A DNA stretch of 20,000 bases from assembly GCA_046539845.1 (NCBI GenBank), contig JBKHGE010000002.1, forward strand, positions 114,721 to 134,720. The letters are read 5' to 3'. Within the stretch, counting starts at the first letter, position 1, and every line of letters starts with the position of its first letter. The notes under the pieces are model-generated. The model did not search any database. It was not told the DNA's origin and saw only the letters and a program-made list of their open reading frames with translations. Both the position numbers and the translations under genes were made by a program. The DNA comes from Desulfonatronovibrionaceae bacterium (lineage in GTDB: Bacteria > Desulfobacterota > Desulfovibrionia > Desulfovibrionales > Desulfonatronovibrionaceae). Shown here piece after piece: positions 1 through 20,000 of the stretch.

Positions 1-727
1 CGCAGCTGCTCAGAGCTGCGGCCGCAGGAATAGAGTCCATGGTGAAAAAGGGGACTTGACTGCTGACCGCTTTTTTAACTCCCGGGTCCAGGGGTATGGT
101 CCCGGTCAAATCCAGGGATATGCCCTCCAGAAAGTGGTCGCAAGCGGCATAGAGTTTCTTGAATACCTCCTGGCCGTCCTTTTCCGAGCGACACATGTTT
201 ATAAGTACCCGGAAGCGGTGGATGCCGTGATTGTTGTTCAAAACCTTTATCAGGGCATAGGCGTCTGTGAGCGAGGTGGGCTCCGGGGTAATGACCACCA
301 GGAGTTCCTGCACCGCCAGATTGAAATAGATAACATTATCGCTTATTCCCGCTCCCGTGTCCACGATAAGGAAATCCAAAGAGTGGTCCAGCCGGTCCAT
401 GGCTTCCAAAAGCTCGAGCTTCTGCCCGGCGGAGAGACTGTTTATCTCTGTAGCCCCGGAAGAGGCCGGAAGTATGGTGAACCCGTAGTTGGTTCGGACC
501 AGGATTTCTTCCAGGGAGACCCCGGATTCGAAGAGGTGGAAGATATTGTATTTCGGTGTCAGGCCCAGAAGTACATCCACATTGGCCAGGCCCAGGTCAG
601 CATCGAGCAAAAGCACATTTTTGCCCATTTCGGATAGGCAGTGGGCCAGGTTCACGGCCATGTTTGTCTTGCCTACCCCTCCCTTGCCCGAGGTCACGGA
701 GAGGACGACAGGTAGATTATTATTCAT
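1..727 (-). CDS. flhG: MinD/ParA-family flagellar number regulator FlhG/FleN (3' end off the window)
   Basis: Not in the ORF track because it has no stop in the window. Manual translation from ATG at 727: MNNNLPVVLSVTSGKGGVGKTNMAVNLA...LLDADLGLANVDVLLG...IVDTGAGISDNV...TPEPTSLTDAYALIK. Deviant Walker A motif; start overlaps the flhF stop. Confidence 0.93.
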   Translation of the reverse strand, partial: MNNNLPVVLSVTSGKGGVGKTNMAVNLAHCLSEMGKNVLLLDADLGLANVDVLLGLTPKYNIFHLFESGVSLEEILVRTNYGFTILPASSGATEINSLSAGQKLELLEAMDRLDHSLDFLIVDTGAGISDNVIYFNLAVQELLVVITPEPTSLTDAYALIKVLNNNHGIHRFRVLINMCRSEKDGQEVFKKLYAACDHFLEGISLDLTGTIPLDPGVKKAVSSQVPFFTMDSIPAAAALSSC

Positions 728-1793
728 ACAGGATTCCGTTGTTGCCCGAAGGCATTTCATGTTTGAATATAAGCCGCCAGATATCCTTTTTGGCCACCCG
801 ATGCGAGCAGTCCCTGAGGCCGATGCCGAAGGAGAATCCGGATACCGGCAGGCCGGTCCTCCAAGTCGTATTCAGTATGCCCCCGAAGATACATGCCTCG
901 TCCAGTTTAGTCCAGATAAGGCTTTTGAGTTCCGGGTGGGAATATCTGCGGATATAGCTGTGCATATGGATGTCCGCATACACTGGACTCAAAACCAGGT
1001 GCAGGCCCATGTCTTCCGGATGGTCGCCGCGGGCCAAGAGCCAGTCTTTAAGGTCCTGGCCCGGAGTCATGCCCGGGATGTCCACCAGGACCAGATCGTG
1101 TTTTTTGCGCAGGCTTCCCAGCCGGCCCCAAAGCGCCCGGGAGGCGATTTCCTCATAGGCGAACCCGGAAAGGTCGCAGTAGTGCTTAAGAAACAGGCGC
1201 CCCCCGGCGTGCAGGGCATCCGCATTGGCCACGCATACAGAGATTTCCTTGTGCTTGCGTTTGCACTCCAGGGCGTAGCGGATGAGTGATGTGCTCTTGC
1301 CTGCTCCGTTGGGGCCGCAGAACCCGATGACTTCCTGCCGGGGGAAGTTCTGGGTCTCCAGCCCGCCGGTTTCCAGGAATTCGTCCAGGACCGCCAGAGT
1401 GGGGCGGCCGTTTTTGTGCAGCCTGTGCCATATGCGCATGATCAGTTCCGGGGCCACTCCCTCCTTTTCCAGGTGCTCCAATCCCAGGGCCTGCCTGGAG
1501 GTGAGCTTGGACTTGTCCAGGCCGGGGCGAATAAGATCAAAAATGCTTTTTTTGAAGGTTTCCCATTCCCGGCGCCACCCCGGGTCCACTGGATCGGAGC
1601 CCAGGGCAAAGTCCTGCGCGGTTCTGCCGTTGTCCGCATCTTTGTTCTCCAGGCCAGCGACCACCTCGCAGACTGGCTTGCCCTCGATTTTTTTGTGTTC
1701 CGTGCTCAAAATGGCCGCCTCTGAGCCCAATTCAGACTTTATTCTGCCCATGACCTCGGACAGGGTCCGGCCGGTATAGGTTTTAACCCGCAT
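720..1793 (-). CDS. flhF: Flagellar biosynthesis SRP-type GTPase FlhF
   Basis: N-terminus MRVKTYTGRTLSEVMGRIKSELGSEAAIL, P-loop GPNGAGKST, G4 TKLDE; lies between flhA and flhG. Confidence 0.9.
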   Translation of the reverse strand: MRVKTYTGRTLSEVMGRIKSELGSEAAILSTEHKKIEGKPVCEVVAGLENKDADNGRTAQDFALGSDPVDPGWRREWETFKKSIFDLIRPGLDKSKLTSRQALGLEHLEKEGVAPELIMRIWHRLHKNGRPTLAVLDEFLETGGLETQNFPRQEVIGFCGPNGAGKSTSLIRYALECKRKHKEISVCVANADALHAGGRLFLKHYCDLSGFAYEEIASRALWGRLGSLRKKHDLVLVDIPGMTPGQDLKDWLLARGDHPEDMGLHLVLSPVYADIHMHSYIRRYSHPELKSLIWTKLDEACIFGGILNTTWRTGLPVSGFSFGIGLRDCSHRVAKKDIWRLIFKHEMPSGNNGILYE

Positions 1794-3891
1794 CGTCCAT
1801 CCTCACTACCTTGGCCGATTCCAGTCTGATGTCCGGCGGGATCTCCGCCTGGGAGATAACCGGCAGAATGGGGATGAACCTCTGGATGAGCTGGGCCAGG
1901 TGAGGCCGGACCTGGGGGGAGACCAAGAGGGCCGGTTGTCCTTCCGTGACCGTGTTTTTCTCCATAAATTTGTTCAAGGCCTGGATGATCTTCTGCGCCC
2001 TGGCCGGTTCCAGGGCCAGAAATGTGCCCTGGTCCGACTGCCGGACACTGTCCTGGATGACCTTGTCCAACTGCTCGTCAAAGGTAATTATGGGCAGGAT
2101 GTTGTTTTCCGATAGATAAGGCTTGGTCACCGCCCGGCTCATTTTTTGGCGGATGAGTTCGGTTAACTGCTCTGCGTCCTTGGTTTGGGTCCCGAAATCA
2201 GCCAGGTTCTCCACGATGGTCAAAAGGTCGCGGATGGACACGCCCTCCCGGACCAGATTCTGCAGGACCTTCTGCACCGTGCCCAGGTTGAGCGTCCCGG
2301 GCACAAGATCTTCGACTGCCTTGGGCGCCCTCTGGGCGAGATTGTCCAGCAGGCTCTGGACCTCCTGTCTGCCCAGAAATTCGTGCAGGTTGCGCTTGAA
2401 GACCTCGGTCAGGTGGGTGGCTATCACGGTGGAGGGGTCCACGACCGTGTATCCAGCCATGGTGGCCTCTTCCTTGCGTTCTTTGGGTATCCATAGGGCC
2501 GGGAGGTTAAAGGCCGGCTCCAAAGTCTTCACCCCTTTTATCCTGTGTTTGACGTCTCCCGGGTCCATAGCCAGATAGTGGTCGATCATGATCTCCGCCC
2601 GGGTTACTTCGTTGCCCTTGATCTGGACCGCGTATTCCCCGGGTTTGAGCTGCAAGTTGTCCCGCAGGTGCAAAGAGGGGATGACCACGCCCATATCCAG
2701 TGCGAACTGTCTGCGGATGGATTTAATGCGTGAGAGCAGATTGCCGTTTTGTTCTTCGTCCACCAGGGGGATGAGCCCGTATCCGACTTCGAGTTCCAAA
2801 GTATCCAGGGGAAGCAGGCTCTGGACCTCTTCCGGAGTGTCGGCTGTTTTTTCTTCTGCCTTCTGGCCCTTTTGGGCCTCTTTTGCCTCCAGCATGGCCC
2901 GGTTTTTGGCGGACATGATCGCGATCATAAAAATGGCTGCGGACAGGATGCCGAAGGCCAGAGTGGGCATTCCCGGGACCAGGGCGAACATGAGCAGTAC
3001 GCCGCTGACCAAGCGCAATGCGCGGGGGTGGAATGTGAGCTGGCCGATGATCTCTTCGCCCATCTGTGCTTCAGCCGCGGCCCGGCTGACTATCATGCCC
3101 GCAGAGGTAGAGACTATGAGCGAAGGGATGGTGGAAACCAGTCCGTCGCCTATGGTCAGCAGGGTATAGGTTTGGGCCGCTTCCATCCAGGCCATGTCCT
3201 TCTGAAAAACGCCGATAAGCAGCCCGCCGACTATATTGATAACCGTGATCAATATGCCGGCGTTGACATCACCCTCCACGAACTTGCCCGCACCGTCCAT
3301 GGCCCCGTAGAAGTCCGATTCCTTACGCAGGGCCTCGCGCTCTTTCTTGGCTTCTTGTTCGTCAATCAACCCGGCGTTCAGATCGGCCTCGATGGACATC
3401 TGCTTCCCGGGCATGGCATCCAGGGTGAACCGAGCCGCGACTTCCGCTATGCGGGTGGTGCCTTTGGTGATGACCATTTTGTTCAGGGCAAAAAGGATAA
3501 GGAAGATGATTATCCCGATGGCAAAGCTGCCCCCGACAACAAACTGCCCAAAGGCCTCGATCACATTTCCGGCCGCCCCTGGGCCGCGTTCTCCGTGTAA
3601 AAGAATAAGCCGGGTGGAAGCCACGTTAAGGGCCAGGCGGTTCAGGGTGGTCACCAGGAGTATAGAGGGGAAAATGGAGAACTCCAGGGGCGACTTCATG
3701 AACATGGTGGTCAGGAGAATGACCAGGGAAAAGGAAATACTGAAGGAGAGCATAAGATCCAGGACGATGGTGGGCAGGGGAATGAGCATCACGAACAGGA
3801 TTATGACCACTCCTCCGGCCAGGAGGATGTCTCCCTGCTTGGCGAAGCGGGAGTAATCCAGGTTCATAATTGCTGATTGTTTTGATGCCAT
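1783..3891 (-). CDS. flhA: Flagellar export apparatus protein FlhA
   Basis: 702 aa; FHIPEP motif RIAEVAARFTLDAMPGKQMSIEADLNAG, FYGAMDGAGKFV, LELEVGYGLIPLVD. Confidence 0.98.
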   Translation of the reverse strand: MASKQSAIMNLDYSRFAKQGDILLAGGVVIILFVMLIPLPTIVLDLMLSFSISFSLVILLTTMFMKSPLEFSIFPSILLVTTLNRLALNVASTRLILLHGERGPGAAGNVIEAFGQFVVGGSFAIGIIIFLILFALNKMVITKGTTRIAEVAARFTLDAMPGKQMSIEADLNAGLIDEQEAKKEREALRKESDFYGAMDGAGKFVEGDVNAGILITVINIVGGLLIGVFQKDMAWMEAAQTYTLLTIGDGLVSTIPSLIVSTSAGMIVSRAAAEAQMGEEIIGQLTFHPRALRLVSGVLLMFALVPGMPTLAFGILSAAIFMIAIMSAKNRAMLEAKEAQKGQKAEEKTADTPEEVQSLLPLDTLELEVGYGLIPLVDEEQNGNLLSRIKSIRRQFALDMGVVIPSLHLRDNLQLKPGEYAVQIKGNEVTRAEIMIDHYLAMDPGDVKHRIKGVKTLEPAFNLPALWIPKERKEEATMAGYTVVDPSTVIATHLTEVFKRNLHEFLGRQEVQSLLDNLAQRAPKAVEDLVPGTLNLGTVQKVLQNLVREGVSIRDLLTIVENLADFGTQTKDAEQLTELIRQKMSRAVTKPYLSENNILPIITFDEQLDKVIQDSVRQSDQGTFLALEPARAQKIIQALNKFMEKNTVTEGQPALLVSPQVRPHLAQLIQRFIPILPVISQAEIPPDIRLESAKVVRMDDAG

Positions 3892-3908
3892 AAAATTGAC
3901 GTCCGGAC

Positions 3909-4973
3909 TTATCCGGGTTGCTTTTTGTATTTATAGAGTTCTGCCAGTATTGCGGCCACCGCCTTGTACATCTCTTCGGGTATGGACTCTCCTATTTCCA
4001 CACTCTTATACAAAGCCTGTGCCAAGGGCTTGTTCTCCCGGATGGGCACATCGTGCTCCCTGGCGATTTCTTTGATCTTTTCCGCCATGTAGTCCGCGCC
4101 CTTGGCCAGGACCAGAGGCGCCGGGGCCTTGCTAGGGTCATACTTCAGGGCCACGGCAATATGGGTGGGGTTGGTAATGACCACGTCCGCCTCCGGGACC
4201 TCCTTTCTCATCCGTTGCTGCATGGAAGAGAACATCTTCTGACGCTGCTCTTTTTTCATGGCTGGGTCGCCTTCTGCCTGCTTGCGTTCGTCCTTGATCT
4301 CGTCTTTGGTCATTTTCAGGTTTTCCTCGTAGTCCCAGCGCTGATAGACTAGGTCGATTATGGCAATTATGATCATGGGCACCAGGGCGTAGAGGAATGT
4401 CTTGTATCCCAGCTCCAGGATGTACACGATCACCCCCTCGATGCTCTGGTAAAATAGGGGCAAAAAATTGTGGATCTCAGATTTGATCACCAGGTACGGG
4501 GCCACGGCAATGACCGCGGCCTGAAAGATGCTGCGGACCAGCTTGATCGCGGAATTCAGGTTACATATCTTTCCCAATCCGCTTACTATATTAAATTTGG
4601 ATATCTTCGGCTTGAACGGCTTGAAGGTCCACAGGTGTCCGACCTGGGCCCGGATACAGACAACACAGGCCAGGAAAACAAAGAGCATTATCGGCAGCAG
4701 GATCAAGGCCATCTGCTGTATGCTGTAGACAAACACGGAGCGTATGGTGTCCGTGTTCAGGTCCATAAGGATCTGCTTGTCCAGGAAAAAGCGGCAGGTC
4801 TCGGTGAGTTTTGTGCTTATAAACGGAAAGGTAAGGCGGATGATGATCAGTCCGGCAACAATAGTTACCGCTTTGGGCATCTCCTCGCTTCGGGGTACAT
4901 TCCCTTCCTGGCGGGCCTTTCTCCTTTGTTTGGGAGTGGCTTTTTCCGTTCTGCTCGGGTCTTTTTGGGGCAT
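3909..4973 (-). CDS. flhB: Flagellar export substrate-specificity protein FlhB
   Basis: RTEKATPK start, KMTKDEIKDERKQAEGDP, autocleavage motif NPTH. Confidence 0.98.
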   Translation of the reverse strand: MPQKDPSRTEKATPKQRRKARQEGNVPRSEEMPKAVTIVAGLIIIRLTFPFISTKLTETCRFFLDKQILMDLNTDTIRSVFVYSIQQMALILLPIMLFVFLACVVCIRAQVGHLWTFKPFKPKISKFNIVSGLGKICNLNSAIKLVRSIFQAAVIAVAPYLVIKSEIHNFLPLFYQSIEGVIVYILELGYKTFLYALVPMIIIAIIDLVYQRWDYEENLKMTKDEIKDERKQAEGDPAMKKEQRQKMFSSMQQRMRKEVPEADVVITNPTHIAVALKYDPSKAPAPLVLAKGADYMAEKIKEIAREHDVPIRENKPLAQALYKSVEIGESIPEEMYKAVAAILAELYKYKKQPG

Positions 4974-4994
4974 TATTCAATCCGGGGTTGCATT

Positions 4995-5774
4995 TCAGCT
5001 TCCGGCCCTAAGCACTTGCAGGAACATGGAATCCAGATCCGCGACATAATCGGTTATATACACCGTCATTAATTTGAACAGCATGCCCAGGAAAATAAAT
5101 CCGACCATAATCCGGACCGGCATGCCCACGAACAATACGTTCATCTGCGGCGCGGCCCGGGCTACCAAGGCCAGGGCGATATCCACCAGGATGACCGTGG
5201 CCGTGACCGGGGCGGCTATCTTGACTGCCAGCAGAAATAGCATGGCCGAAAAGCTGAGCATTTTGTCCAGGAGCACCGGAGTGAGAAGGAACCCGCCCGG
5301 GGGAACGATCTCAAAGCTTTGGGCCAGTCCGGAGAGGAGATAGAGGTGCCCGTTTAAGGACAGAAAGATAAGCAGGGATATCATATACAGGAGATGGGCG
5401 GTGACCGCTTCTGAAATCCCGGTTATAGGATCGACCACATTGACTATGGCAAAGCCCATCTGGAATCCGATCAATTGTCCCCCGGTCTGAACGGCTGCGA
5501 ACAGGAAGTTGACTATAAGCCCCAGGCTCAGACCGAGCAGGAGTTCACCCAGGATCATGAGCAAAATCCCTAGGGGATGGTCCGGGAAATAGGAGGGGTC
5601 AAAGGAAAGAGCGGGCCACAGCCCCAGGGTAAGGACCAGGCACAGGGCGGCCTTGATTGTCCGGGGCAGGGCCTGCCCCCCGAAAAAAGGCAGAAGAAAG
5701 AGGACGATACTCACCCGGAAGAAGGTCAAAAAAAAGCTTGTCAGGGTTTGCTGATCCAAGTCAAAAAGGTCCAT
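4995..5774 (-). CDS. fliR: Flagellar export gate protein FliR
   Basis: 259 aa hydrophobic protein with GQLIGFQMGFAIVNVVDP, LNGHL and RAAPQMNVLFVGMP; directly upstream of flhB. Confidence 0.96.
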   Translation of the reverse strand: MDLFDLDQQTLTSFFLTFFRVSIVLFLLPFFGGQALPRTIKAALCLVLTLGLWPALSFDPSYFPDHPLGILLMILGELLLGLSLGLIVNFLFAAVQTGGQLIGFQMGFAIVNVVDPITGISEAVTAHLLYMISLLIFLSLNGHLYLLSGLAQSFEIVPPGGFLLTPVLLDKMLSFSAMLFLLAVKIAAPVTATVILVDIALALVARAAPQMNVLFVGMPVRIMVGFIFLGMLFKLMTVYITDYVADLDSMFLQVLRAGS

Positions 5775-5785
5775 GCATTGCCATG

Positions 5786-5801
5786 AGCAAAATGCGGACC
5801 A
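5786..5801 (-). promoter_or_regulatory. Sigma54 (-24/-12) promoter of the fliR-flhBAFG operon
   Basis: Minus strand TGGTCCGCATTTTGCT has GG-N10-GC spacing and is close to the TGGCAC-N5-TTGCW consensus; it lies immediately upstream of a flagellar operon. Confidence 0.7.
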
Positions 5802-6002
5802 GAGGATCGGGGACGGTTTGGCAGGCTTATGTATCCTGCCTGCAGGGTCAGGACCAGGCTGTACCTGTTAGCGGGCTGTTTTCCGGATCCGGCGGACAAG
5901 AGTGGAGACCTGTTTTGCCCACCCGGTAATGCATCCCGGCATTCAAGACAGCCTTGAAGCAGTCGGCCGGGCCTGAGTCAATTCCGCTGCGAAGAGGTAA
6001 GG

Positions 6003-6908
6003 CTAGTCCAGGATATAGCGCATGGGGTCTACCGGGACCCCGTTGTTGCGCACCTCGTAGTGCAGATGGGGGCCGGTGCTGCGACCGGTGTTGCCCACAT
6101 GGCCTAGGAGTTGCCCCCTTTCCACCTCCTGGCCGGGCTCGACCTTGTATCTTTTCAGGTGTCCGTAGCGGGTCTTGAGGCCGTTGCCGTGGTCCAGAAC
6201 CACGCATATTCCGTAGGCCCCGTCCTTGCCGCTGAAGACCACCTTGCCGTTGGCCGGGGAGTAAATTGGGGTCCCTGTGGGGCCGCTTATATCCAGTCCC
6301 TTATGGAATTCACGCCTGCCGGTGAACGGGGAAGTGCGATACCCGAAATCCGAGGATACCCAGCCCTGGGTGGGCCAGATGGAGGGAGTGGAGGCCAGGA
6401 TCTGCTTTTTGTCCTTCAGGTGGTCCAAAAGCTCCTTTTGCCTCATCTGTTCCAGCTTGGCGTCCGTGCTCAGCTCGTCCAGGAAATTGTGCATCTTGCG
6501 GGCCAAAAGCTCCTGGCGATGGCTGGAGAGGAAGGCCTCGGACAGCTTTTCTATTTCCGGACCGCCCAAAGAAGGTGAGAGGAAGGGCTGCCCGGAATCC
6601 AGATTGGCCATCACCCGCAGTTTGGAATCCAGGGCTTTGACCTTGGTCAGGTCTTTTTCCAGGGAGTTTATTTTCTGGGCCAGAGAAAGGAGCTGGCCTT
6701 TTTGCTTTTGTATAGTTTTCTGTGAATCCTGCATCTGGGTCTGCATAACCTGATATTTGTGATAGAAGGTCCCGAAATATACGCTGCTGCCAAGCAGTCC
6801 GATAATCAAAAATAAAATCACAGCCGGAGTCCAGCTGCGGATATGGAGCTTGCGGCAGCACCCCTGTTTTTCTTTGAAAACAATGATTTCGTATTTAGGG
6901 CCGATCAT
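6003..6908 (-). CDS. M23-family metallopeptidase (N-terminal TM helix, coiled coil, M23 domain)
   Basis: Zn ligands HKGLD (HxxxD) and TGPHLHYEV; PSIWPTQGWVSSDFGYR; hydrophobic N-terminal segment. Confidence 0.93.
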   Translation of the reverse strand: MIGPKYEIIVFKEKQGCCRKLHIRSWTPAVILFLIIGLLGSSVYFGTFYHKYQVMQTQMQDSQKTIQKQKGQLLSLAQKINSLEKDLTKVKALDSKLRVMANLDSGQPFLSPSLGGPEIEKLSEAFLSSHRQELLARKMHNFLDELSTDAKLEQMRQKELLDHLKDKKQILASTPSIWPTQGWVSSDFGYRTSPFTGRREFHKGLDISGPTGTPIYSPANGKVVFSGKDGAYGICVVLDHGNGLKTRYGHLKRYKVEPGQEVERGQLLGHVGNTGRSTGPHLHYEVRNNGVPVDPMRYILD

Positions 6909-6953
6909 GTCTGTCCCTTTTTATTTCGGGTTGTCTCTATTTTTAGACTTTGG

Positions 6954-6982
6954 AATCTAGTTTAACTGCGAATCCAAGTCAA
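6954..6982 (-). promoter_or_regulatory. Putative sigma70 promoter for the M23 gene, embedded in the 3' end of ttcA
   Basis: Minus strand TTGACT-N17-TAGATT; the -10 box includes the ttcA TAG stop. Confidence 0.55.
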
Positions 6983-7703
6983 GTTGCCATCTGGCAATGG
7001 CGTTAAAAATATTTTTTTCAATCATTTTGTCCCGGCCGGTCAGGGCCTCCAGGCGGGAGAGCACTTGCTTTCTTTTGTTCTTCCCCGCCGAAGGGCAGGG
7101 GTTTTCCCAAACCGGCAGCTCCCATTCCCGGGCCGCCTTTATGAGCCTGCTTTTTTCCGTAAGCAGCATGGGCCGAATGACTCGGAGTCTTCCGGAAAAA
7201 AAAGGTTCGTTGGCAGTCATCCCGCGTATGTTTCCGGTCTGGAGCATGTTCAAGAAAAAGGTCTCCACCAAGTCCTCCCTGGTATGTCCCAGGGCCAGGT
7301 GGGTCAGATGGTAGTCTCTACAGAGCTCGAACAGCCTTTTGCGCCGTTTCCAGGCGCATAAGAAACAGGGGGACTTTTTGCGGTTGGCCCGGGAATGGGC
7401 GTAATTGCCGATGTCGGTTGTCTCGGTATAAGCGGGCACCGGCTGTTTGTCCAGCCAGTCCAGAAGGGGCCGGTGATTGCCGGGGTCAAAACCGGGGTTT
7501 ATATGCAGGACCATGATCTCGAAATAAAAGGGGACCATGCGCTGCCTGGCCAAAAGCACCCTGAGCATGGCCCAGCTGTCCACTCCGCCGGACAGGGCCA
7601 CTCCCACCCTGGCCCCGGGCCAGAGCATGCCGGTGCGGTGCATTAGCTTTCCAGCGCTGGATATGCAGTTTTTCTGGGCGTAGGAAAGTCTTTTCCCGGG
7701 CAT
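6957..7703 (-). CDS. ttcA: TtcA-family tRNA thiolase (PP-loop ATPase)
   Basis: PP-loop VALSGGVDS, PCFLCAWKRRKRLF, LALGHTREDLVETFFLN, VIRPM, NPCP. Confidence 0.8.
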   Translation of the reverse strand: MPGKRLSYAQKNCISSAGKLMHRTGMLWPGARVGVALSGGVDSWAMLRVLLARQRMVPFYFEIMVLHINPGFDPGNHRPLLDWLDKQPVPAYTETTDIGNYAHSRANRKKSPCFLCAWKRRKRLFELCRDYHLTHLALGHTREDLVETFFLNMLQTGNIRGMTANEPFFSGRLRVIRPMLLTEKSRLIKAAREWELPVWENPCPSAGKNKRKQVLSRLEALTGRDKMIEKNIFNAIARWQLDLDSQLN

Positions 7704-10693: not shown

Positions 10694-11473
10694 TTACCAG
10701 ACCATGCGCACAGGCACACCCTTGTCGTGCATGATTTTTTTGATCTCCGGCAGGGTATATTCCCCGTAGTGGACTATGGAGGCGATGAGTGCGGCCGAGG
10801 CCCGGCCTTTTGTCACTGCATCGACCATATGCTCCGGGCTGCCAGCTCCCCCGGAGGCGATGACCGGGATACGGACGTGATCGCAGACAAGCCGGGTCAG
10901 ATTCAGCTCGTATCCGTCCTTGGTCCCGTCCGCATCAATGGAGTTGAGACATATCTCCCCGGCGCCGAGCTCCTCCATTTTTCCCGCCCAGTTCAAAGCG
11001 TCCAGCCCGGTCTTTTTTCTGCCCCCGTGGATAACTATTTCGTATCCGGAAGGGATGTCCGTGGATCGCTCAACCCGCAACACATCCATGCCGACTACAA
11101 TACACTGCGATCCGAAGGCGGCTGCCCCCTCGGAGACTATGTCCGGGTTCTTAACCGCAGCTGAATTCACGGAGATCTTCTCCGCCCCGGCCAGGAGTAC
11201 GTCGCGCATGTCCTGGACTGAAGCCACTCCCCCGCCCACGGAAAAGGGAATGAATATTTTTGACGCGACTTCCTCCACCACCCGGAGCATTATCCCCCGG
11301 CCTTCGGCCGAGGCGGTGATGTCGTAAAAGACAATTTCGTCCGCCCCGTTTTCATAATACAGCCGGGCGGTTTCCACCGGGTCGCCTATGTCCACGTTGC
11401 CCTTGAATTTTATCCCCTTGGTCAGTCTGCCGTCCCTGACGTCCAGGCAGGGAATGATCCTCTTGCTAAGCAT
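10694..11473 (-). CDS. hisF: Imidazole glycerol phosphate synthase cyclase subunit HisF
   Basis: Start at [12 protein letters not shown] (ATG 11473); [33 protein letters not shown]. Confidence 0.98.
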
Positions 11474-12104
11474 AAAGCTCCCCCCGGCAGTAGGAATTGA
11501 AGTTGGCCAGTATGCGCAGTCCGGGACGGCCGCTTTTTTCCGGATGAAACTGCATGGCCCACAGCCCTTCGCGGCCAAGTACGGAGCAAAATTTGGTCCC
11601 GTATACGGTCTCACCCAGGATATATTCCTGTTTTGGCTGTGGATAATAGGCGTGCACAAAATAAAATTCCGCGCTGGGATCCACCCCGGTGAAAAGAGGG
11701 CAGGGAGCAGTCAGCTCCACGTTGTTCCAGCCCATGTGCGGGATATTGATTTCCTCCCCCTTTTCGTCGGTCCAATCCGGGTCAAAGATTCGGCATTCTC
11801 CGGGGATAAGGCCCAGGGTGGAAGTGTTGTTCTCCGGGCTGTAATCCAAAACAATCTGTGAGCCCAGGCAGATACCCAGAAGCGGTTTGCTGTTTTCCAC
11901 ACATTCAGCCAGGGCCTGATCCAGCCCGCTGGAGCGAAGATAATCCATGGCCGATCCGGCCGCGCCCACGCCGGGGAAGATTATCCCTTCGGCCCGGAGA
12001 AGATCCTGTATGTTTTCGGTTATCAGGTTTTGGATTTCCAGATAATCCAGGGCCCGCTTGACGCTGGTCAGATTACCGGCATTGTAGTTGACAATGGCCA
12101 GCAT
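11466..12104 (-). CDS. hisH: Imidazole glycerol phosphate synthase glutaminase subunit HisH
   Basis: Start at [15 protein letters not shown] (ATG 12104, AAGGAG SD); PGVG, LGICLG nucleophile, QFHPEKS. Confidence 0.97.
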
Positions 12105-12311
12105 TGATTCTCTCCTTTTTATTCCCTGCAGTTGATCAGGTGCTATTAGCAAAACCCGACGGGCCTGAAAAGGGTCTTTTTGTTCACCCGGGGGAGGCAC
12201 GGACTGTGTACTTTTGCCCTGCTTTGGGTTAGCAGGGTCCTGGCTTTGCCCCCCCGGCCGGGGCCCTGGGATTGGATATTGGCCGGGAAAAGCAAACACG
12301 GGAAAAGGGAA

Positions 12312-14074
<1,763 letters not shown>

Positions 14075-17792: not shown

Positions 17793-18617
17793 ATGCAGCC
17801 GAGATTGTTCCATATTTTCCGCAACACCCCCTTCGGCCGGGAGACTCTCCTGCAGTCCATATATTTCTGCAAGGCGACCGGAGAGCGGCTTTATATTTAT
17901 ATCCCGACCAAAAAGCAGTTTATGCTCTATGTAGGCTCCAAGGCCATTCAGGTCGGGCTGGATTCCTCTTATCTATCCGATCCGGGCACAGCCGAGGACC
18001 ATTGCCGCCAGATATTGGATTACTCTGGATTTACAGCTGATTTTTTTCAGCCGGAAGAATACACCGCCTCTACTTTGCCGGATGTCCACCTTGATTACGA
18101 ATATCTGTGCTGTCCCCGGATTATAAGCGATTTGTCCACCAAGATCGGATTGGGCCAGATCGAGACCAAGGTGAGGCAGATCCTGAGGGAGGCCCCTTTT
18201 CCGGTGCTTATCCCCAGTCAGGTGTACAAGCCGTGGAAGTCGATCACTGTGTTTTTCGGCGGGTCAGAATCTGCAAAAAGCGCTCTTTTGTTCGCGGCCT
18301 CCCTGGCCGAGCGGGCCGAGGTCCCGTGCAGGATATTCACCCAGGATGAAGGCAAGGGGTGGGAGAGCTATGCTGACCAGATCAGAGAGCAATTGGGCGA
18401 GGCCTGGAGCGGGGAGTATGAATGGAAATTTTTCACCCAGGGGTCAATGCGGGACAATCTGTTCGAAGTGGAACACGATACCCTCGCGGTTATGGGCATA
18501 TTCGGTCATCCTCCGCTGAAAAAGGCGCTTTTCGGGAGTACAATGGAGCTTATTCAGTCCCATCTCCCAAACAGCCTTCTGCTGGTGGGGGATAAATGCT
18601 GCTTTCCGGGCGGGTAG
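17793..18617 (+). CDS. Universal-stress-protein-like protein
   Basis: USP-type motifs ILREAPFPVLIP, FFGGSESAKSAL, VMGIFGH...LFGSTMELI...LLLV; ATG at 17793 with GAGG SD. Confidence 0.7.
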   Translation: MQPRLFHIFRNTPFGRETLLQSIYFCKATGERLYIYIPTKKQFMLYVGSKAIQVGLDSSYLSDPGTAEDHCRQILDYSGFTADFFQPEEYTASTLPDVHLDYEYLCCPRIISDLSTKIGLGQIETKVRQILREAPFPVLIPSQVYKPWKSITVFFGGSESAKSALLFAASLAERAEVPCRIFTQDEGKGWESYADQIREQLGEAWSGEYEWKFFTQGSMRDNLFEVEHDTLAVMGIFGHPPLKKALFGSTMELIQSHLPNSLLLVGDKCCFPGG

Positions 18618-18665: not shown

Positions 18666-18902
18666 TTATAGGCTTGCCTGGCCGGGTCTTATGGGTCTCT
18701 GGCAGGCCCGGATCTGAAGCTCCTGGACTATAAGCCGTTCGTAATCAACGGCTGGACGGGCCTTAAACCGACTGTTTTCGTTTTCCAGATAGGAATCCAG
18801 GAACTGACTTTCTTCCCAGAAATCCAGGAGTTCGTCCTCTTCCAGGATCCGCAGCTGTTCTTCCAAGGCATAATTTTCCGAGTGGGGAAAAAAGCTTCCC
18901 AT
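18666..18902 (-). CDS. Small acidic hypothetical protein (78 aa)
   Basis: Strong SD (AAGGAGG); LEEDELLDFWEESQ...YERLIVQEL; ends at the bidirectional terminator. Confidence 0.75.
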   Translation of the reverse strand: MGSFFPHSENYALEEQLRILEEDELLDFWEESQFLDSYLENENSRFKARPAVDYERLIVQELQIRACQRPIRPGQASL

Positions 18903-19004: not shown

Positions 19005-19188
19005 TCAGCCGGAGTAGTCCGGTCTGTGCGGGGGGCTGTGGTCTCCGTGTTCGTGGCCGGTATGCCCCAGCGGATGGGCGTGCTTATGGACGTGCAGAAG
19101 AGCGGCAGAGTTCTGTTCGAGCCGTCCGTTTCTGAGTTGAAAGAAGTCATCGCAGGTGCGATCCAGGAAATCATAGTCGTGCGAGACA
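19005..19188 (-). pseudogene. Stranded 3' fragment of an ABC/ECF transporter ATPase (CbiO/NikO-like), interrupted by the IS
   Basis: Manual translation 19187->19005: VSHDYDFLDRTCDDFFQLRNGRLEQNSAALLHVHKHAHPLGHTGHEHGDHSPPHRPDYSG*. This matches an ABC H-loop (SHD), the terminal strands (..NGRL) and a His-rich tail. No in-frame start; an in-frame TAG lies in the IS end at 19208-19206. Confidence 0.75.
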
Positions 19189-19330
19189 TTGACATCCTCC
19201 CCTCCCTAAAGGAAGGGGATTCCTGGCTATGCAGCCAGGACCGGTACTCTGTCGCCATTTCCCGGCGGTTCCTGCTTCCGACCGCTTGTGCGATTCGATC
19301 CACAGGCCATCCCCCTCTGCCCGAGGGTTT
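19170..19330 (-). ncRNA. Putative TnpB omegaRNA (reRNA) scaffold plus guide; boundaries approximate
   Basis: Overlaps the tnpB 3' end and IS right end. GCCTGTGGA...GAAGCAGGAA motif; hairpins ATCGC-ACAA-GCGGT, TCCTGGCT-GCAT-AGCCAGGA and the subterminal hairpin; guide expected from flanking DNA beyond TCAA. Confidence 0.6.
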
Positions 19331-20000
19331 TGATATTTATGGCAGCGTTATGATCCGCATTGATCTCAAGGCCGCAGGCCTCACACACGAACCGGCTCTG
19401 CGATCTCCGGTTGATCTTTGACACATGGCCGCACCAGCAGCAGGCCTGTGACGTATGGTGCGGAGGAACCTTGACCAGTTCCCCGCCACGCCAGTTCAGC
19501 TTGTAGCCGAGCTGGCGCATGAACTCACTCCAGCCTTGATCTAGGATGGATTTGTTCAACCCGGACTTGGCCCGGACGTTTTTGCCCGGCTTCTCCCTGG
19601 TCCCCTTTGCAGAATGGGACATGTTTTTCACTTGCAGGTCCTCCGCATACACCACGGCATAGTCCCGGGAAAGGGCCGTGGAATGCTTATGCAGATAGTC
19701 CAAGCGGGTATCCCGGATCTTACGGTGGACCTTGTTCACCTTCGCCTTTTGCTTCTTCCAGTTCTTTGAAAACTCCTTCTTACGGGAAAGTTTGCGGTGC
19801 TCCCTGGCCAGTTTCTTCTCCACTTTCCTGAAGGCGTTTAGCGGTTCGCCAAACGTACCGTCCGAGCAGGTGTAGAACCGGGAAATTCCCATGTCCAACC
19901 CTGTGCTTGGCTCTCGCACAGGACAAGGATCGGGGACTTCCTGCTCCACCTGCACGGATATATACCAATGCTTTCCGTCTCTGGATACAGTCACGTTCTT
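19189..20000 (-). mobile_element. IS200/IS605-family insertion sequence (IS609-like), right portion
   Basis: tnpB plus right end CAGGAATCCCCTTCC-TTTA-GGGAGGGGAGGATGTCAA: GAAT motif, subterminal hairpin (19219-19198) and terminal TCAA (19192-19189). Confidence 0.92.
19227..20000 (-). CDS. tnpB: RNA-guided endonuclease TnpB (5' end off the window)
   Basis: RuvC-I GLDMG, RuvC-II AEDL, zinc finger TSQACCWCG...CEACG, RuvC-III NADHNAAINI. The frame stays open to the window edge (KNVTVSR...). Confidence 0.96.
   Translation of the reverse strand, partial: KNVTVSRDGKHWYISVQVEQEVPDPCPVREPSTGLDMGISRFYTCSDGTFGEPLNAFRKVEKKLAREHRKLSRKKEFSKNWKKQKAKVNKVHRKIRDTRLDYLHKHSTALSRDYAVVYAEDLQVKNMSHSAKGTREKPGKNVRAKSGLNKSILDQGWSEFMRQLGYKLNWRGGELVKVPPHHTSQACCWCGHVSKINRRSQSRFVCEACGLEINADHNAAINIKTLGQRGMACGSNRTSGRKQEPPGNGDRVPVLAA

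Follow-up and report, generated by a model that had tools for sequence, protein, structure and literature searches.

The stretch of DNA analysed here (20 kb, hereafter the window) is the terminal part of contig C2 of an assembly of 2.34 Mb in 65 contigs, rated 98.91% complete and with a smallest contig of 5,961 bp, and the end of C2 coincides with window position 20000. DNA of the window is found in metagenome runs from microbial mats and a hypersaline lake. At the contig end an insertion sequence (IS), assembled only in its right part, abuts the last codons of a transporter ATPase gene, and the features on which the following argument turns are, in window coordinates:

17793 to 18617, plus strand: Usp-like gene, member of protein cluster P0252 (270/274 identical)
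18666 to 18902, minus strand: gene for a 78-aa protein, directly downstream of the cbiO remnant and used as a synteny anchor
19005 to 19188, minus strand: cbiO/nikO remnant, made up of the last base of a split Ile192 codon, residues 193-252 and the stop codon
19169 to 19188, minus strand: first 20 nt beyond the right end, predicted to act as guide in the omega-RNA of TnpB
19189 to 19226, minus strand: IS right end, with a subterminal hairpin at 19219-19198 and the terminal TCAA cleavage motif at 19192-19189
19227 to 20000, minus strand: 3' part of tnpB (257 codons), the 5' part lying beyond the contig end

The first-pass annotation had called the element a TnpB-encoding member of the IS200/IS605 family, and profile and structure matches, together with the hairpin at its right end, bear this out. 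The tnpB part is recognised by Pfam PF01385 (OrfB_IS605, E 1.6e-25) and PF07282 (Cas12f1-like_TNB, E 1.1e-23), both above their cut-offs, and by the NCBIfam model guided_TnpB (233 bits against a cut-off of 100); the solved TnpB 8bf8 matches it with E 8e-28, and the genome's complete copy on contig C23 has 85% amino acid identity to it. Three motifs (GLDMG, YAEDL and NADHN) keep the RuvC-type D/E/D positions, alongside a Zn finger. Features of the IS605 group of this family are thus present in the window element (subterminal hairpins, a right end in TCAA and a tnpB gene with RuvC and Zn finger parts), and insertion 3' of a fixed motif of 4-5 nt is found across the IS family to which it belongs. 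On the minus strand the junction reads ...GGAGGATGTCAA/T GTC TCG CAC GAC TAT (the slash marks the junction), window 19189 being the final IS base, and GATGTCAA terminates all 12 distinct right ends of the IS family in this genome and its relatives (12/12), with unrelated flanks beyond. For the hairpins of the right end the folding energy is -15.1 kcal/mol (z = -3.66), a value reached by none of 200 shuffled sequences (0/200). The fixed motif is TTAT, which precedes 8/8 distinct left ends examined, at a background density of 3.6 per kb per strand; a relative's intact gene, encoding a CbiO 67% identical, reads CTTAT/TGTC at the insertion site. Of the two targets proposed beforehand, TTAT is therefore upheld, and TTGAT has to be given up since the left ends follow TTAT.

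Outside the element, the unannotated frame without a start codon that had been described at the IS end was confirmed: it runs over 60 codons from 19187 to 19005 (VSHD...NGRL...LHVHKHAHPLGHTGHEH...YSG-stop), lacks a start codon in frame as far back as the stop within the right end of the IS, and is preceded by the T at 19188, the third base of the split codon. The codon of the H-loop His195 is at 19181-19179 and the His-rich tail at 19094-19047. A sister strain has an intact ECF ATPase of 252 aa, P0002, whose residues 193-252 are identical to the frame at 59/60 positions, and by this alignment the remnant is the part of a His-tailed CbiO/NikO ATPase from the H-loop to the C-terminus, as had been supposed. 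The frame also matches six of the 26 family genomes searched (E 5e-15 to 3e-9), and S194, H195 and six His residues of the tail are invariant across 13 aligned sequences. The bare 61-aa frame has no ABC match in Pfam, where SelP_N alone came up, with an E of 0.08 that we put down to chance. The single G-to-N difference of the remnant from P0002 fits strain divergence, and we do not read it as decay. P0002 reads ...PRLI/VSHD at the break, so that Ile is the residue broken up by the junction. It stands two before the H-loop His and is the one that had been predicted for the incomplete codon.

The sequence of P0002 contains the usual ABC motifs (Walker A GDNGAGKT, Q-loop FQD, signature LSGGQ, Walker B ILDEP and H-loop IVSH) and matches PF00005 with E 7e-31. 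Models of ECF ATPases rank first for it, all below their cut-offs; the curated cbiO model TIGR01166 gives 166 bits where 211.8 are required, and the CbiO/NikO name therefore rests on context. Its best solved relative is the cobalt ABC transporter ATPase 5x3x (E 5e-42), and in genome and metagenome collections no locus exceeded 67% identity to it, so that these yielded neither an intact nor a filled allele of the host species as DNA. The context comes from relatives, in which the ATPase closes an operon DUF4198(nikK)-cbiM-nikL-cbiQ-cbiO, established by profile scan in L047 and by the order of open reading frames in L046 and L126. From the start of nikK to the insertion site, three relatives have 3.3-3.6 kb.

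Because the IS is a high-copy repeat in the community, the junction itself might be a chimera made by assembly through the repeat. We regard this as highly improbable: in run X1 an independently built Logan contig spans the junction unbroken, at a uniform depth of 39.6 and with no letter differences, and the break falls exactly after the TTAT-homologous position of the intact cbiO. This comparison covered the contigs of four of the seven runs listed (X1, X3, X5 and X6), and in all four other contigs depart from the window sequence at 19185-19189. Run X3 has the host flank at a depth of 2.6-5.9 with no bridging contig listed, and X5 and X6 have coverage of the IS only; on empty sites these three runs are uninformative. 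The summed depth of the IS (window 19189-20000) is 92-1,561 as against 39.6 for the host, with many variants and junctions, and since it is abundant even in runs without the host flank, it is spread across other organisms. No empty-site joint was among those listed in the contigs of the four runs, contigs being assemblies that drop rare variants and X1 possibly being the source sample.

If the element were a simple insertion into cbiO, its left end would be expected to follow the 5' part of the ATPase gene, as the earlier annotation implied in reading the locus as a reversible knockout of Co/Ni uptake. A motif scan of the assembly returned two right ends (C2 and C23) and two true left ends (C21 and C23); a third left-end match, on C8, was set aside for being without the family hairpin sequence. 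The sole left end without a partner follows a TTAT, begins at C21:36574, is cut off by the contig end after 132 bp and has a weaker hairpin (z -2.25, with 6/200 shuffles as good). What precedes it is the upstream region of a divergent peroxiredoxin gene, which begins about 350 bp before the left end, and not the 5' part of an ATPase, a result that speaks against the reversible knockout and that, short of an unbinned middle piece, the earlier annotation had itself named as refuting it. The gene is:

L219:11492-12223, equivalent to G000:C21:35492-36223, minus strand: PrxU-type peroxiredoxin

An in-frame TGA in this gene, between FTFV and ATEI, is present in the congener G002 too and probably encodes selenocysteine.

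In G002, homologues of the genes at the C21 end (a PAS kinase and the peroxiredoxin) adjoin those at the C2 end (the 78-aa gene, Usp and a C69 peptidase) in matching orientation and about 300 bp apart, the 78-aa gene being there the divergent neighbour of the peroxiredoxin gene. The 78-aa protein is acidic and conserved throughout the family (46-79% identity among the loci compared, 77-79% in two congeners); profile searches of Pfam and NCBIfam gave no match to it, and in the protein atlas it hit only unnamed clusters, below 0.9. Peroxiredoxin and 78-aa genes are adjacent in one of the two congeners examined, G003 having a trpB-like gene there. From the synteny with G002 we infer that C21 and C2 carry the two sides of one element, and the nik operon would formerly have stood between the peroxiredoxin and the 78-aa gene. 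If the two contigs are so joined, what is assembled of the tnpA of the window copy is tnpA-like DNA on C21 equal to roughly its last 15 codons. The simplest map would then read peroxiredoxin, TTAT, one IS, cbiO tail, 78-aa gene. The join between C21 and C2 is not assembled, and the left end on C21 could stem from another event, the window element's own left end and the 5' part of cbiO being unbinned or separated by an IS-mediated rearrangement. The affinities of the two pieces lend this some weight, the C21 left end being closer to a copy in the genome G013 (105/124 identical positions, as against 97/129 to C23) and the tnpB part on C2 closer to C23 (689/812, as against 634/812 to G013). Still, the short type of right end on C2 resembles that of G013, as does the C21 left end, the assembly has exactly one unpaired left and one unpaired right end, and the flanks of these are adjacent in G002 with matching orientation; we hold a separate event to be very unlikely.

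The rest of the operon was looked for in several ways. In a tblastn search of the assembly P0002 found residues 193-252 alone, the next matches being paralogues at about 34%, so that the picture of an element flanked by both halves of its target gene did not hold up: the 5' 192 codons are not in the assembly, an outcome that an unbinned contig would change. CbiM, CbiQ and DUF4198/NikK have no match anywhere in the assembly, a relative's NikK, CbiM, NikL and CbiQ likewise gave none by tblastn, and the cbiM/Q-type neighbours by which a cobalt or nickel transporter might have been recognised are thus absent from it. The sister strain provides the complementary view. P0002, the Usp protein P0252 (270/274) and the C69 peptidase P0265 (578/579) each come from an NCBI contig of 6,715 bp, and these proteins and their shared contig size suggest, at the protein level, that the sister strain, about 99% identical at that level, carries an intact ATPase at the window locus.

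We consider it likely, on this evidence, that an IS605-family element replaces at least 3.3 kb, from the TTAT on the peroxiredoxin side to the TTAT in cbiO, and that its excision would not restore the transporter. Most likely, then, the locus records the loss of a Ni/Co ECF operon marked by an ordinary IS605 element in cbiO, and not a reversible switch. The alternative with the greatest weight is that two copies of the IS in the same orientation flank the operon, one at the peroxiredoxin TTAT and one in cbiO, and that a middle piece of 3.5-4 kb has remained unbinned. The insertion in cbiO would in that case be a simple one, and its precise excision could in principle restore the gene, an outcome that cutting of the empty site by TnpB would oppose. 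Such a piece would be shorter than the smallest contig of the bin (5,961 bp); the abundance of the IS family in the community (depth 92-1,561 against 39.6) breaks assemblies; precise excision of ISDra2 is described as restoring an interrupted gene (PMC2806898, in the portions available); and the NiFe hydrogenases and nikR are retained. We nevertheless think this arrangement improbable, if worth keeping in mind. The Logan assemblies contain proteins that neighbour the remnant in the host strain, and among protein searches that scored the best 8,000 word-sharing candidates each, no near-identical truncated CbiO of at least 138 aa was found in the protein collection; the best six CbiQ clusters (57-93% to the query) pair, through equal-sized contigs, with the CbiO of other species, which leaves none for the host species. 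Moreover, C2 extends 812 bp into the element without the stop at a fork that a second identical copy would be expected to cause.

A further argument against the two-copy arrangement comes from the copy on C23, which shows a deletion on a single contig. It is a complete IS605-type copy of 1,795 bp (C23:364-2158, locus L019), with a tnpA (PF01797, E 6.6e-45, and a match to NF033573) divergent from a tnpB frame of 415 codons, and it sits within an MscS-cNMP gene. On the left the flank ends in a TTAT that corresponds to residue 175 of the orthologue in G002, and on the right it begins at residue 293; about 352 bp of mscS around the copy are missing and are absent elsewhere in the assembly, and a TTAT stands just before residue 293 in three of four mscS orthologues. 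Judging from these alignments, excision of this copy would leave an out-of-frame deletion in mscS. The C23 copy thus certainly, and the window copy probably, replaces DNA between two TTAT positions. The lack of gain or loss of target DNA that goes with the IS605 group is accordingly not seen in either, the C23 copy being without about 352 bp and the window copy having, across the join proposed from synteny, a left flank that is not cbiO; we read such failure of the flanks to rejoin as secondary deletion and not as non-membership in the IS200/IS605 family. Judged from the filled site, a full copy in G013 has the look of a clean insertion, placed where a gene for a glycosyltransferase ends, and deletion is therefore not obligatory. 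Matches to the IS occur in 3 of 400 other genomes of the class, with one full copy among them.

On the proposed join, both junctions of the window element lie at TTAT positions and look TnpA-made, and two TnpA events would therefore be needed. Within the deletion reading, we lean slightly towards a pair of insertions in the same orientation, each at a TTAT of its own, with the two copies then recombining or being resolved. Only a little behind comes a route in which a single insertion in cbiO would be followed by a TnpA reaction that moves the left end, within one single strand, to a TTAT further upstream. After either route, an excised locus would have the TTAT of the peroxiredoxin side fused to the tail of cbiO, and nothing would be restored. 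TnpB may add to this. In the mechanism described in the available portions of a preprint (bioRxiv 10.1101/2023.03.14.532601), from which we took the position of the guide, TnpB cleaves the empty site and helps the element to be retained. The omega-RNA guide predicted here (19169..19188) would match the TTAT-adjacent sequence of cbiO, and, with the right flank as its guide, an active TnpB should on this prediction cleave the excision joint as well as any incoming intact cbiO. Such cutting would favour retention of the element and oppose the regain of an intact operon from the sister strain. It is tempting to go further and propose that TTAT-to-TTAT replacement, of which both copies in this genome would be instances, is regular in this IS605 clade, with TnpA re-targeting the left end of a resident element to an upstream TTAT and removing what lies between, and with TnpB, its guide still fitting the intact gene, making the loss lasting by cutting a re-acquired operon, which would turn a supposedly scarless element into a directional, self-guarding deletion agent; we offer this as a speculation that is probably too strong. 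A candidate self-target of TnpB was seen on C1, with 3 mismatches in 14.

Three NiFe-hydrogenase large subunits are kept in the host genome (G000:C8:12378-13682, C1:49638-50891 and C13:9878-11029), as is nikR (C4:26402-26632), and NicO and HupE/UreJ have no match in the genome; the loss of the operon therefore leaves the supply of nickel unexplained. Two of the three large subunits have an in-frame TGA and are possibly NiFeSe enzymes. The family as a whole points the other way, in that CbiM is present in 12 of 26 other genomes and in 10 of the 17 that are at least 90% complete, so that the system seems dispensable. Neither cbiO nor CbiM has a match in the congener G002, and G003 has a nik operon in another context, away from the site orthologous to the window. 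In L126 and L047 the region before nikK has NikR-box matches only at four mismatches; none precedes the C21 left end, and the genome has no NikR box at two mismatches or fewer.

According to the portions available of the papers cited, this locus resembles several known systems and departs from each. Like IS608/ISHp608 of Helicobacter pylori and ISDra2 of Deinococcus radiodurans, the family has tnpA and tnpB divergent in its complete copy and subterminal hairpins (PMC3201880, PMC2806898); its right cleavage motif TCAA is that of IS608, and like both it inserts 3' of a short motif rich in T. In these systems the motif 3' of which TnpA places the element is specified by a guide, and excision by TnpA neither adds nor removes DNA (PMC3201880); in the case of ISDra2 it can restore the interrupted gene (PMC2806898). 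The target here is TTAT, unlike their TTAC or TTGAT, and the flanks appear to come from two target sites, so that the original gene would not come back at the donor joint. With the TnpB-bearing ISGst elements the window element has in common a TnpB with a right-flank guide, predicted in our case, the TAM of ISGst TnpB2 being TTTAT (bioRxiv 10.1101/2023.03.14.532601); unlike theirs, the TnpB of the window, its 5' part unassembled, is a putative nuclease with a predicted TAM. ISs in general give rise to adjacent deletions whose end points lie at target sites (PMC9330008), and the IS605, IS606 and ISHp608 deletions of the H. pylori plasticity zone are alike in placing an IS at the broken end of truncated genes and in having the deletion attributed to the element (PMC2731543, PMC3120642). 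Both end points here lie at TTAT, at two loci of one sulfate reducer, unlike the H. pylori cases, for which the portions available of those reports do not describe motif-to-motif end points. The gene order in the relatives is that of NikKMLQO/CbiMLQO in Desulfovibrio, where nikKMLQO is predicted from NikR boxes to be a NikR-regulated nickel transporter (PMC545781); the transporter here may have served nickel or cobalt, and a difference is that only the last 60 ATPase codons are left in the host assembly. P0002 is itself related to the CbiO structures 5x3x and 5x40. Replacement of DNA from motif to motif by an IS605 element was not found in the literature we covered, which treats adjacent deletions in general terms and to which subscription papers and supplements would add, and we make no claim that it is unpublished; the available portions of PMC7290912, PMC2924317 and PMC3119063 held nothing decisive.

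A reversible switch should not, then, be read from the right end of an IS605 element within a gene, and what lies on the left needs checking before such a claim is made. The locus is a natural example of a sulfate reducer in which NikR and three NiFe hydrogenases are kept but the one recognised Ni/Co ECF uptake system has, it seems, been lost, while the sister strain retains the ATPase; the element also brings a TnpB to which we assign a putative TTAT motif. Should TTAT-to-TTAT replacement prove true as a direct reaction of TnpA, it would count as a deletion pathway within peel-and-paste transposition.

Other partial or reduced forms of the family were seen among the relatives. A non-coding mini element of 61 bp (L227:5519-5580, G016:C79, minus strand), with TTAT, one hairpin and an end in TTTCAA, looks like a PATE of the IS family with fused ends. 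In G013, a left end after TTAT (L226:1965 onward, on that genome's contig C21) is followed by no tnpA, tnpB or right end within the 8 kb examined and is possibly a remnant or the product of a right-side deletion. A 5'-truncated copy in G005 (L223:4727-5686, on its contig C8) consists of the 3' part of tnpB and a right end; the locus contains neither tnpA nor a left end. The remainder of the window has a housekeeping character, its Pfam matches at 720-7703 and 10694-12848 including an M23 peptidase, a PP-loop protein, a HisF/glutamine-amidotransferase pair and flagellar export genes that are flhF-, flhA-, flhB- and fliR-like.
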